From an uncultured Erysipelotrichaceae bacterium (lineage in GTDB: Bacteria > Bacillota_I > Bacilli_A > RF39 > UBA660), in the NCBI GenBank assembly GCA_948439995.1, contig CAOJNP010000002.1, positions 316 to 64,315 on the forward strand: a stretch of DNA of 64,000 nucleotides. The letters run 5' to 3'. Below are positions 24,385 through 29,999 of the stretch, in pieces. The notes beneath the pieces are model-generated. The model had not been told where the DNA came from and did no database searches. It saw only the letters and a program-made list of their open reading frames with translations. Position 1 is the stretch's first letter, and the number at the start of each line of letters is the position of its first letter. The translations under genes were made by a program, and so were the position numbers.

Positions 24385-25500
24385 CTATAAATATTTTTTA
24401 AAGCTTTTTATTTCACTGTCATTTTCTAAATTTGTCTTATCTAATTCTTCCAACAATTTTTTTTGTTCTCTTGATAATTTTATTGGAGTAACCACATGGA
24501 AAATGACATATAAATCCCCTTTGCGTAAAGAATTTGCTACTTTCACACCTTTTCCTTTTAATTTTACTTTGCTACCGCTTTGAGTTCCTGCTTTAACATC
24601 TAATATAACATTACTATCAATAGTTGGAATTTCTACTTTACCTCCCAAAGCTGCCGTTGTAAAAGTAATTGGTACTTCAAGGAATAAATCTTCTTCTTCT
24701 CTTTCAAAAATAGGATTTTTTCCAACTTTAAATTCGATATAAATGTCGCCATTTGGGCCACCATGATATCCAGCTTCACCTTTTCCAGAAATTTTTAATT
24801 GATAGCCATTGTCTACTCCTTCTGGAATGGTTATTTCAATTTCTTTTTTCTTTTTTATGTGTCCAGACCCACGGCATACATTACATTTTTCTTCGTAAGT
24901 TTTTCCTTTTCCTCCACAAGTTGAACAAGTAGTTTCGGTTTGAAAAATACCAAATAAACTACGTTGTTCTTCAATTACTCTTCCTTTTCCATTACAAGTT
25001 TTACAAGTTTTTTCTCCAAATCCACCAACACCATTACATTTTTCACAAGTTTCATCTAATTCTAGTTGAATCTCTTTTTTACAGCCTTTCACTGCTTCTA
25101 GAAAAGATAAATCAAGTCTTATTAGACGGTCTCGTCCTTTTTGAGGACGATTGGAACTTCTTCTAGATGAACCTCCAAAACTACTAAATCCAGAGAAACC
25201 TCCTCCAAATAAATCATCAAAAATACTTCCTAAGTCAAAATCTTCGGCATTAAATCCAGAGAAACCTCCGCCACCATTTTGGAATGCTGCATGTCCAAAT
25301 TGATCATATTGACGTCTTTTTTCAGGGTCAGATAAAACAGAATATGCTTCGCCAATTTCTTTGAATTTTTCTTCTGCCCCTGGCTCTTTATTCACATCGG
25401 GATGATATTGTTTGGCCAGTTTTCGAAATGATCGTTTAATTTCTTCATCGGTTGCAGATTTTGAAACACCTAAGACTTCATAATAATCTTTTTTTTCCAT
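24385..25500 (-). CDS. dnaJ: molecular chaperone DnaJ
   Basis: J-domain (DYYEVLGV...HPD), G/F-rich linker, four CxxCxGxG zinc-finger repeats, and a C-terminal domain. Confidence 0.92.
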
Positions 25501-25505
25501 TTATT

Positions 25506-26768
25506 TCACTTCTTTCCTACAATTGTTATATTTTTTAATAATAAAGAAGGAGCTGAAACACATAATAAATTATGCGAATATTCTTTTCCTATTTCTATTA
25601 CATTTGAAAATAACTCAAAAAAATTGGTAGATAATATTATCATTTCTAATCCGTTTGTTATTTTTCCATTTTCTACAACAAGTCCTTCTGCATGAAGAGA
25701 AATGGTTCCATTTTTTTTATCAATTCCAGAATGTAATCCATAAATTTCATCAATAATAATACCATTATTAAGCTTTTGAATTAATTCTTGCTCTGAATTA
25801 TCGCCTGATTTTATATATAAATTATTGACTCCATAAGCATTTCCTGTTGCTTTTACATTCTGTTTCGTTGCATATTCTAAATTATTTATTTCCAATTGAA
25901 ATATTCCATTTTTTACAATTTCTTTTTCATATGTAATGGTTCCTTCGGTATCAAAATAACGTTTTTCAATTCCATTTTTAGGGTCTTCGACGATTGTTAT
26001 TTTATCGTCAAATATTTTTTGAGTTCTTTTTCCAGAAAGAATAGATATATTTTGTTCAATATCTTTACTTTGAAAAGAATTTGCAAAGGTATTTAAAATG
26101 TGTGCTACAGCATTATTTTTTAAGATAATATTATATTTTTTTGTGGTACAATTATCACCATTTAATTTTATAATTAAATATTCTAATTTTTCTCGAACAT
26201 AATGATAAAAGGATTTAAAGTCATAATTTTCGGAATAAAAATTAATAAACGATACTTTTTTCTTATCAATTTTTTCAATTGTAATCGCTACTCCATACTC
26301 ATGATAATAAGTTTCATCCGTTAAACTGCATTCTTTATTATTAATCCCATATCGGTTGATATAATGAGAATAAGTGGTCTCAATATTTAAAATTAAAGGA
26401 TACTCTTTTTTTAAATCAATTAAATTCAAAAAATCTTGTTTTATTTTATTATAATCTAATGTTTCTTTTTGTTCTAATTTATGTTTTAAGTTTCCTTGAC
26501 AAAGAAAATTTTTATTTTTATTTTCTTGTAATTTAAAAATATTTTGAATATTATCAATGATTAAATTTGGATTTTTTAAATTATCAGTCATATATTCAAT
26601 AGAAATTTCATTTTTGATGGCTTTAATTCGGTATGAAGTAACATTTGTAATTTGAAATAATTTTTCTTTCCCATTCATGGTATTAATATCAACTTTTTCT
26701 TGGGTCTTTTCAAATATTTCGATATCAATTTTAGCTTTTTTTCCTAATTCGATGATTTTCTGTTTCAT
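25506..26768 (-). CDS. tldE: TldE/PmbA family metalloprotease subunit
   Basis: PmbA_TldD fold without HExxxH, C-terminal GxxxxGxGxxxxG region. It overlaps tldD by 4 nt. Confidence 0.65.
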   Translation of the reverse strand: MKQKIIELGKKAKIDIEIFEKTQEKVDINTMNGKEKLFQITNVTSYRIKAIKNEISIEYMTDNLKNPNLIIDNIQNIFKLQENKNKNFLCQGNLKHKLEQKETLDYNKIKQDFLNLIDLKKEYPLILNIETTYSHYINRYGINNKECSLTDETYYHEYGVAITIEKIDKKKVSFINFYSENYDFKSFYHYVREKLEYLIIKLNGDNCTTKKYNIILKNNAVAHILNTFANSFQSKDIEQNISILSGKRTQKIFDDKITIVEDPKNGIEKRYFDTEGTITYEKEIVKNGIFQLEINNLEYATKQNVKATGNAYGVNNLYIKSGDNSEQELIQKLNNGIIIDEIYGLHSGIDKKNGTISLHAEGLVVENGKITNGLEMIILSTNFFELFSNVIEIGKEYSHNLLCVSAPSLLLKNITIVGKK

Positions 26769-28132: not shown

Positions 28133-28178
28133 TTGATTTTCCTAACTTAAGGAAGAGAGAATTTTCTTCTCTCTCTTT

Positions 28179-29999
28179 TTATTTTTCTTCGTAACTTGCT
28201 TCTTCAACATCATCTTTTTTATCTTTTTGATCTGCACTATCTGTCCCATTTGCTTGTCCATCTTTATTTGCTTGTTCATAAACTTTAGTGGCAAGTCTCA
28301 TGGCAACTTCTTGTAGACTTTCTGTTTTCTTTTTGATTTCATTGGTATCATTTTTTTCCATCGCATCTTTTAATTCTTTGATTTTTTCTTCAGCTTCGGT
28401 TTTATCTTTTTCATCTACTTTATCTCCAAGATCTTTTATGGCTTTTTCAGTACTAAAGATTAAAGTATCGGCATCGTTTTTTACATTCACTTCTTCTTTT
28501 CTTTTTTCGTCCGCTTCTTTATTTGCTTCCGCATCACGAACCATTTTATCAATTTCATCATCACTTAAAGAAGTATTTGAGGTAATGGTAATTGTTTGCT
28601 CTTTATTGGTTCCTAAATCTTTAGCAGTTACATGAACGATACCATTTGCGTCGATATCAAATTTTACTTCAATTTGAGGAACTCCTCTTGGAGCTGGTGG
28701 AATATCCATTAGTTGGAAATTTCCTAATGTTTTATTATCATTTGCCATAGGTCTTTCTCCTTGTAATACATGGATATCTACAGCAGGTTGATTATCGGCA
28801 GCAGTACTGAATACTTGACTTTTACTAGTTGGAATAGTTGTATTTCTTGGAATTAATACCGTCATTACTCCTCCTAGTGTTTCGATACCAAGAGATAATG
28901 GAGTAACATCTAGTAAAACCAAATCATCTACTTCACCGGTTAAAACTCCACCTTGAATGGCAGCACCCATTGCTACTACTTCATCAGGATTTACACCTTT
29001 GTGTGGTTCATGGCCAAGTTCTTTTTTGACTAATTCTTGAATATATGGAATACGAGTTGAACCACCAACTAAAATAACTTCATTGATATCACTTGCTTTT
29101 AATTTCGCATCTTTTAAGGCTTTTCGAACTGGTTCTAAAGTGGAATCAAATAAATCACGGCATAAATCTTCAAATTTCGCTTTGGTTAATTCCATTTCTA
29201 GATGAACAGGGCTTCCATCTTTTTGTGAAATAAATGGTAAACTGATTTGAGTTTTTGTCATACCAGATAAATCTTTCTTGGCTTTTTCTGCAGCATCTTT
29301 TAATCTCTGCATTGCCATTTTATCATCTGTTAAATCAATTCCTTCTTTATTTTTAAATTCACTTGCTAAATAGTCAATGATTTTTTTATCAAAGTCATCT
29401 CCACCTAATTTATTATTTCCAGCAGTAGATTTTACTTCGAATAGTCCATCTCCTAATTCTAGAATGGAAACATCAAATGTTCCTCCTCCTAAATCATATA
29501 CTAAAATGGTTTGTAGTTTTTCTTGTTTGTCTAATCCATAAGCTAAAGCAGCAGCCGTTGGTTCGTTTATAATACGTTTTACATCAAGTCCAGCAATTTT
29601 ACCAGCATTTTTCGTTGCTTGTCTTTCTGCATCATTAAAATATGCTGGTACCGTAATAACGGCTTCTGTAACACTTTCTCCCAAATAATTTTCGGCATCT
29701 TTTTTTAATTTACTTAAAATTTTTGCAGAAATTTCTTCTGGAGTCCATTTTTTATCATTTGCACTTACTTTTTCTTTTGTTCCCATCAATCTCTTAATGG
29801 AAGCAATTGTATTATTCACATTCGTTACAGCTTGACGCTTAGCACGTGCTCCAACTAATTCTTCTTCTCCATTAAAAGCCACGACACTAGGAGTTGTTCT
29901 TTCTCCTTCATCGTTTACAATAACTTTTGGTTCTCCACCTTCTAAGACTGAGACACAACTATTGGTTGTACCTAAGTCAATTCCTATAATTTTTCCCAT
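28179..29999 (-). CDS. dnaK: molecular chaperone DnaK (Hsp70)
   Basis: [20 protein letters not shown] and [11 protein letters not shown]sp70 signatures. Length is 606 aa. Confidence 0.97.

Follow-up and report, generated by a model that had tools for sequence, protein, structure and literature searches.

In the 64-kb stretch of DNA analysed here (contig CAOJNP010000002.1 of an uncultured Erysipelotrichaceae bacterium, ~27% G+C; hereafter the window), the genes for the two subunits of a TldD/TldE peptidase are located between dnaK and dnaJ, and would thereby occupy positions four and five in a class I heat-shock operon of six genes. This form of the well-known dnaK operon characterises an entire clade of uncultured gut Bacilli with low G+C and is not a single oddity. 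It appears probable, if well short of certain, that tldD and tldE (together tldDE) are carried on the transcript controlled by HrcA and the controlling inverted repeat of chaperone expression (CIRCE), that their expression is tuned by read-through or attenuation at a hairpin behind dnaK, and that they provide a peptidase which clears peptides in times of stress.

Gene order and spacing in the dnaK block

Six tightly packed open reading frames (ORFs) between positions 31593 and 24385 follow each other on the minus strand in the order hrcA-grpE-dnaK-tldD-tldE-dnaJ, with intergenic gaps of 0, 16, 46, -4 and 5 nt, respectively. The chaperone genes are readily assigned. First, hrcA (30580-31593) encodes a 337-residue protein with a Pfam HrcA match and 297.6 bits to TIGR00331 (cut-off 197.2), and grpE (30016-30579, 187 residues, Pfam GrpE 6.5e-43) begins right behind its stop codon. 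Next, the 606-residue DnaK (28179-29999) reaches 971 bits with NF001413 (cut-off 648), and finally, the 371-residue DnaJ (24385-25500), a type I protein with a CXXCXGXG zinc-finger domain, reaches 433.5 bits with TIGR02349 (cut-off 377); HrcA, DnaK and DnaJ all score above their NCBIfam equivalog cut-offs. Enclosed by dnaK and dnaJ are tldD (26765-28132, 455 residues), which encodes the catalytic subunit, and tldE, also called pmbA (25506-26768, 420 residues), which encodes its non-catalytic partner. The tldD and tldE frames overlap by 4 nt (ATGA), whereas dnaJ starts 5 nt past the stop codon of tldE and has its ribosome-binding site within the tldE end. No further copy of tldD or tldE was found in the 64-kb window. 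The first-pass annotation of this DNA, made from the letters alone, had already placed a tldD/tldE pair between dnaK and dnaJ, with a 4-nt overlap and with all genes co-oriented at short distances; the ORF coordinates together with the Pfam and NCBIfam assignments bear out the placement, and the overlap and the spacing from dnaK to dnaJ (46, -4 and 5 nt) are likewise as described.

Distribution and origin of the arrangement

The occurrence of the gene order was surveyed by a TldD profile scan of one genome per GTDB species, in which 80 loci were kept of at least 600 stretches, followed by tblastn with the window proteins. All 12 clade loci in the sample (TldD identity of 47% or higher) share the block; they are independent of each other and comprise the window, four loci designated L001-L004 and seven further members. 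Metagenome-assembled genomes with this operon include GCA_017484125.1, GCA_964473455.1 and GCA_977041565.1, and it is also present on a 139-kb contig in ERZ14864784. L001-L004, which have the top TldD identity among the matches listed (47-60%), all contain hrcA-grpE-dnaK-tldD-tldE, with dnaJ next wherever the contig continues, and the six-gene block is present in each of the seven further members as well (TldD identity 52-61%). Near the tldD of the other 76 loci among the matches listed (at most 45% TldD identity, mostly Firmicutes, with up to 10 kb of flank), not a single DnaK or DnaJ match was found. The nearest TldD matches in a collection of 5.8 billion proteins are metagenomic, and the few that are labelled are assigned to a "Bacilli bacterium".

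The genes around the block vary from locus to locus, with PBP5, a methyltransferase or an M50 peptidase among those encoded upstream and SDR, Alg14 or a C1 peptidase among those downstream, and the genes following dnaJ differ nearly everywhere; the conserved unit is the block itself. Over the clade loci, identities to the window proteins covary between DnaK (73-80%) and TldD (47-61%). In a neighbour-joining tree, the TldD proteins linked to dnaK fall into one clade, which also holds that of the unlinked locus L006. In the nearest outgroups, L005 and L007, tldDE directly follow a 5S rRNA gene and have their own promoter; the 5S rRNA side corresponds to L005:1-120 and L007:1-125, and both contigs end inside the rRNA operon. 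No dnaK remnant was found upstream of tldD in L005-L007, where the region consists of 5S rRNA in L005 and L007 and of AT-rich non-coding DNA in L006. The joint rise and fall of the DnaK and TldD identities fits a single ancient event that placed tldDE behind the dnaK hairpin and ahead of dnaJ, followed by vertical inheritance.

The contigs of L001 (CAVGEW010000048.1) and L006 (CAYJPM010000017.1) are labelled as Agathobacter sp. and Muribaculaceae, respectively, yet their tldD and tldE are of the low-GC-Bacilli type, and both were probably mis-binned in those metagenome-assembled genomes. The L001 contig, despite its Agathobacter label, carries the entire six-gene dnaK block.

A literature search for tldD, tldE or pmbA together with chaperone or heat-shock genes found no description of tldDE inside a dnaK operon. 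In a phytoplasma review, TldD and PmbA are merely listed as present, and down-regulation of a TldD/PmbA protein at high temperature is reported in a cyanobacterial proteome study, a case that is not comparable. The gene order, called unusual in the first-pass annotation, is absent from the 76 other loci among the matches listed and is not peculiar to one genome but fixed across a clade of uncultured Bacilli. The same annotation would have given up its proposal for an arrangement that was both widespread and already described for the lineage; widespread it is (12 of 12 loci in the clade), but no paper describing it was found.

Additional genes in the operon of relatives

The slot between dnaK and dnaJ has received at least one other enzyme. 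In L003, the 1.8 kb separating tldE from dnaJ contain a gene (L003:12610-14424) for a 604-residue PepF-type M3 oligoendopeptidase with an HELGH motif, which matches Peptidase_M3 (1e-64) as well as the oligopeptidase F N-terminal domain. M3 oligopeptidases act on short unfolded peptides in an ATP-independent manner, and the recruitment of a second peptide-clearing enzyme to the same slot argues for a functional meaning of the location. Separately, an extra ORF of 165 residues with no Pfam match is found between grpE and dnaK in L091 (L091:5638-6135); it is absent from the window, and L001 and L002 have a gap of ~500 nt at the corresponding place.

Additional unrelated ORFs of this kind could suggest that the arrangement is a neutral accident, in which a single event put tldDE into a gap that tolerated them, within a well-expressed operon, and they stayed there with no functional tie to the chaperones; an apparently single insertion event confined to a single clade would agree with such an origin. 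However, the block persists down to 47% TldD identity despite the reshuffled flanks, the overlapping or 5-nt junctions have been maintained, PepF was recruited to the slot in L003, and Pseudomonas aeruginosa has independently brought pmbA and the neighbouring gene PA4474, for a Zn-dependent protease, under a heat-shock sigma factor. A purely neutral origin is therefore considered unlikely.

Promoter and CIRCE-like repeats upstream of hrcA

Promoters were compared in nine loci, the window and eight relatives, by taking the highest-scoring -35/-10 match in the 200 nt before each gene, with 200-nt windows inside the coding block serving as background. In the window, a sigma-70-type promoter, TTGACA-16-TATAAT (31634-31661, minus strand), is located upstream of hrcA and is the best site and the sole 12/12 match in the scanned 11 kb (22000-33000). 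For hrcA, all nine loci have a match of 10-12/12 at 52-78 nt from the start codon. Upstream of tldD the best matches reach 7-9/12 and upstream of dnaJ 8-10/12, in neither case above the coding background of 7-10/12, and as the scores stay within this background there is no evidence of a promoter that would isolate tldDE or dnaJ from the preceding genes.

The hrcA promoter is accompanied, where such operators are expected, by two inverted repeats resembling CIRCE, the consensus of which, TTAGCACTC-N9-GAGTGCTAA, was scored position by position over 18 positions in the same nine loci. The upstream repeat of the window, CTAGCATTT-N9-AAGTGCTAG (31648-31674, minus strand), encloses the -35 hexamer and agrees with the consensus at 13/18 positions, whereas the downstream one, TTAGCACTT-N9-AGGTGCTAG (31603-31629, minus strand), is flanked by the -10 hexamer and the ribosome-binding site of hrcA and agrees at 14/18. 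The downstream repeat scores 15-17/18 in seven of the eight relatives, where it is found ~40 nt upstream of hrcA; L090 has none of at least 13 there. The upstream repeat around TTGACA is visible by eye in all eight relatives, although only those of L004 and L090 score 13/18. Judged by eye, paired repeats are thus present at hrcA in eight of the nine loci, with L090 having only the upstream one, and no CIRCE-like element of at least 13/18 precedes tldD or dnaJ in any of the nine. Rfam detected no known RNA element in the operon, either at gathering thresholds over the whole window or at E-values up to 1 over 24000-32100.

At its other end the block is closed by an intrinsic terminator (24357-24388, minus strand) whose 10-bp stem shares bases with the stop codon of dnaJ and has six T behind it, and the next gene past it has a new promoter, TTGACA-17-TATACT, at 24327-24299. 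With the promoter and repeats before hrcA and the terminator after dnaJ, the operon has a clear start and end.

A conserved stem-loop between dnaK and tldD

Just past the dnaK stop codon, the transcript of the window would form a stem-loop, AGAGAGAA-GAAAA-TTCTCTCT followed by TCCTTAAG (28154-28174, minus strand), with an 8-bp stem and a 5-nt loop. Its folding free energy is -13.9 kcal/mol (z = -2.9 against dinucleotide shuffles, of which 1 in 200 was as stable). The gap at 28133-28178 had been described as hairpin-free in the first-pass annotation, which does not hold, and a counterpart of the stem-loop is found directly 3′ of the dnaK stop codon in all 12 clade loci, the window and eleven others, at -9.2 to -19.5 kcal/mol. 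The hairpin sequences differ among loci. Their general form is shared: an A run precedes the purine-rich arm and the loop, and behind the pyrimidine-rich arm comes a short run of T. This T tract varies, with 0-6 T within 8 nt over the 12 loci and 3 in the window, and is weaker than in the post-dnaJ terminators of the same genomes, which have 6-8 T; a consensus terminator scan of the coding strand did not call the dnaK-tldD stem-loop. In most loci the hairpin is just 10-25 nt away from the tldD ATG, a distance that includes a GGAG-type ribosome-binding site and leaves no room for a promoter. Judging from these features, the stem-loop is a probable partial terminator or 3′ stabiliser. Of the terminator and the promoter whose absence between dnaK and tldD the first-pass annotation asked to verify, no promoter above background was found, whereas a conserved terminator-like stem-loop is present.

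Regulation of tldDE

Control of tldDE by HrcA and CIRCE is the most economical reading of these features, because the promoter and the CIRCE-like repeats are located upstream of hrcA and the internal promoter matches do not rise above background. The first-pass annotation had assigned tldDE to the CIRCE/HrcA regulon on the basis of co-orientation and short gaps, and this assignment agrees with the promoter and repeats before hrcA and with the lack of an internal promoter match above background, with the qualification that the hairpin after dnaK makes read-through necessary. Since the stem-loop in the gap is conserved and terminator-like, expression of tldDE and dnaJ would depend on read-through and would probably be lower than that of dnaK.

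Several observations weigh against HrcA/CIRCE control of tldDE. The CIRCE-like repeats of the window are degenerate, and a strict search with the CIRCE consensus, allowing up to 3 mismatches, gave no match in the window, as the repeats are too degenerate for that limit. The hairpin could terminate efficiently, given that it is followed by TTTTT in several relatives, and a non-consensus promoter within the 3′ end of dnaK would escape the scan. In both B. subtilis (PMC2952846) and Listeria (PMC8711649), dnaJ has its own promoter. Finally, gene order by itself cannot establish a functional link.

In a different model, the stem-loop is an efficient terminator and tldD-tldE-dnaJ form a separate constitutive unit, transcribed from an unrecognised promoter in the dnaK 3′ end; TldD/E would then be linked to DnaJ but stand outside the HrcA regulon, in a situation resembling the vegetative dnaJ promoter of B. 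subtilis and Listeria. The terminator-like hairpin in 12 of 12 loci, with 4-5 T past the stem in several of them, would suit this model, as would the dnaJ-specific promoters documented in the two species. On the other hand, the best matches upstream of tldD in the nine loci are at or below the coding background and their position is not conserved, the distance from hairpin to ATG is just 10-25 nt in most loci, and the T tract of the window is poor in comparison with the 6-8 T of the post-dnaJ terminators. The separate unit is thus regarded as not very likely, and HrcA/CIRCE control with read-through at the hairpin is retained as the preferred reading. In sum, the earlier interpretation appears largely reasonable, although unproven.

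In the proposed mechanism, transcription would start at one strong sigma-70-type promoter upstream of hrcA, which is bracketed by two CIRCE-like operators and presumably repressed by HrcA until protein-folding stress relieves the repression. The stem-loop after dnaK would stop or stabilise part of the transcripts and would thereby yield more HrcA, GrpE and DnaK, and tldD, tldE and dnaJ would be carried on the read-through transcripts. Given the close packing of these three genes, which overlap by 4 nt or follow at 5 nt, their translational coupling is probable, and their products would be present at similar levels, below those of the preceding genes. DnaJ is required for DnaK function, and read-through would therefore be the simplest route to expression of dnaJ and so also of tldDE. 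The TldD/TldE heterodimer, made alongside the DnaK system, would act as a hollow ATP-independent metallopeptidase that takes chains only when unfolded and trims them irrespective of sequence, and could in this way clear the unfolded fragments and peptides building up under stress. It is from the arrangement of genes and signals that we infer that tldDE are co-transcribed with dnaK, induced by heat and attenuated at the hairpin, and that the peptidase serves in quality control.

A closer relationship may also be imagined for this clade, in which TldD/E works solely downstream of the DnaK system: DnaK/DnaJ would keep damaged proteins bound or unfold them and feed their free N-termini into the TldD/E chamber, which would make it an Hsp70-fed protease. 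Such a model appears quite improbable; if true, it would reveal the long-sought bacterial housekeeping role of TldD/E.

Features of the TldD and TldE proteins

The window TldD has the full three-domain PmbA_TldD architecture, as PF01523, PF19290 and PF19289 all match above gathering cut-offs, and its residues 2-453 align full-length with E. coli TldD (5NJ5_A, E = 4e-69). In this alignment the HEACGH motif at residues 238-243, already reported in the first-pass annotation, superposes on the E. coli HEAVGH (His262 to His267), and Cys428 aligns with chain residue 468 of 5NJ5_A, which is the native Cys454 and the third metal ligand. In E. coli TldD, the metal is held by two residues of the HExxxH histidine motif and Cys454 (PMC5810440), and both HEACGH and Cys428 are invariant among 17 TldD sequences of the clade. 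The fold and the ligands are settled by this alignment with solved TldD/E structures. With NF008006, the NCBIfam TldD model, the protein scores 271 bits, which is below the equivalog cut-off of 513 and indicates a diverged family member and not a close orthologue of the enterobacterial protein. The window TldE is recognised by the C-terminal domain PF19289 (PmbA_TldD_3rd, 4e-49) and by matches to 1VL4 (2e-34) and 5NJ5_B (4e-16), although its NCBIfam score of 84 is likewise below the equivalog cut-off of 438. A motif search of the whole TldE protein found neither HExxxH nor HExxH. As the two genes are adjoining and overlapping, a heterodimer is implied.

The Asp272-Lys456 salt bridge, which is said to tether a clamp in E. 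coli TldD (PMC5810440), corresponds to Thr248 and Ser430 in the window protein, and thus both partners have been replaced while the metal ligands are kept.

A specific-substrate role, in which TldD/E processes the precursor of a microcin or another ribosomally synthesised and post-translationally modified peptide (RiPP), a cofactor precursor or an antitoxin, has its model in the part of the E. coli enzyme in maturation of microcin B17 (MccB17) and degradation of CcdA (PMC5810440). Beside the block, however, no gene for a precursor, modification enzyme, exporter or toxin-antitoxin pair is conserved, and the conserved neighbours are chaperone genes only, which makes processing of a specific substrate very improbable here. 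In particular, the microcin-processing role offered in the first-pass annotation, and a microcin/RiPP reading in general, was rejected, as no precursor or biosynthetic gene is conserved next to the block.

Comparison with known systems

The block closely resembles the dnaK operon of B. subtilis and other Firmicutes, in which the same four genes occur in the same order, hrcA-grpE-dnaK-dnaJ, followed by yqeT-yqeU-yqeV (PMC2952846). In both, a sigma-70-type promoter with CIRCE-like inverted repeats precedes hrcA, an intergenic element separates dnaJ from dnaK, and mtaB (yqeV) is found a few genes downstream. In contrast to B. subtilis, the window has two peptidase genes between dnaK and dnaJ, two CIRCE-like repeats, one of them around the -35 hexamer and both degenerate, and unrelated ORFs in place of yqeT and yqeU, and the dnaJ-specific promoter of B. 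subtilis and Listeria is not detectable in the window by the 200-nt promoter scoring. The mtaB gene itself (TIGR01579, above cut-off) is at 21126-22412 on the minus strand, two unrelated ORFs downstream of dnaJ, and its position is a remnant of the heptacistronic order of the B. subtilis operon. The two intervening ORFs, of 413 residues (with a weak DUF6273 match) and 163 residues, have no clear family.

Of the two subunits of the E. coli TldD/E heterodimer, TldD alone binds metal; the enzyme binds its substrates regardless of their sequence, and its narrow pore is open to unfolded chains only, whose trimming proceeds from the N-terminus (PMC5810440). The window proteins are alike in that TldD aligns full-length with 5NJ5 and has the HExxxH motif and Cys ligand, and in that TldE is without a metal-ligand motif, whereas they differ in NCBIfam scores that stay below the equivalog cut-offs (271 where 513 is required, and 84 where 438 is) and in the salt-bridge positions. 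The gene arrangement is also different, as tldD and tldE of E. coli are not known to be linked to each other or to dnaK.

A grouping of TldD/E-type peptidases with the heat-shock response is seen in P. aeruginosa, where raised RpoH increases expression of pmbA (PA4472) 15.5-fold and of the adjacent Zn-dependent protease gene PA4474 16.4-fold, together with dnaK, dnaJ, grpE, clpB and lon (PMC9866376). The RpoH (sigma-32) regulon thus resembles the window in that such peptidase genes are grouped with dnaK, dnaJ, grpE and stress proteases, while the control there relies on an alternative sigma factor acting at a separate promoter and not on membership in the dnaK operon or HrcA repression. If PA4474 is a tldD homologue, as we presume it to be, heat-shock control of TldD/E has a precedent by another mechanism. 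A further parallel is oligopeptidase A (PrlC/OpdA) of E. coli and Salmonella, an ATP-independent enzyme of family M3 which belongs to the heat-shock regulon and acts on short unfolded peptides; it is another protein family than TldD/E and its gene is not known as part of the dnaK operon. PepF, which occupies the dnaK-operon slot in L003, is likewise an M3 peptidase.

Other features of the window

A small lysine-rich ORF of ~80 residues (31690-31940, minus strand) is located between a phosphatidylserine decarboxylase gene and the hrcA promoter and has its own promoter-like site at 31978-31950. At a greater distance, a T-box leader (42290-42463, minus strand; RF00230 in Rfam, with 93.8 bits where the gathering score is 93) immediately precedes a class I aminoacyl-tRNA synthetase gene (39711-42317) with a valyl-tRNA synthetase C-terminal arm, and a 754-residue ORF (43505-45769, minus strand) has no Pfam match at E ≤ 0.001.

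Biological significance

TldD/E is nearly universal in bacteria and archaea. Its documented substrates, microcin B17 and CcdA, are special cases encoded on plasmids. On protein quality control, those who solved the E. coli TldD/E structure went no further than speculation (PMC5810440). The long residence of tldDE in an HrcA-type chaperone operon provides modest genomic-context evidence for such a role, and the RpoH-dependent induction in Pseudomonas points in the same direction. The gene order also shows that the supposedly "invariant" dnaK operon of Firmicutes can accept new genes at the dnaK-dnaJ junction, which at least one more peptidase, PepF, has entered.

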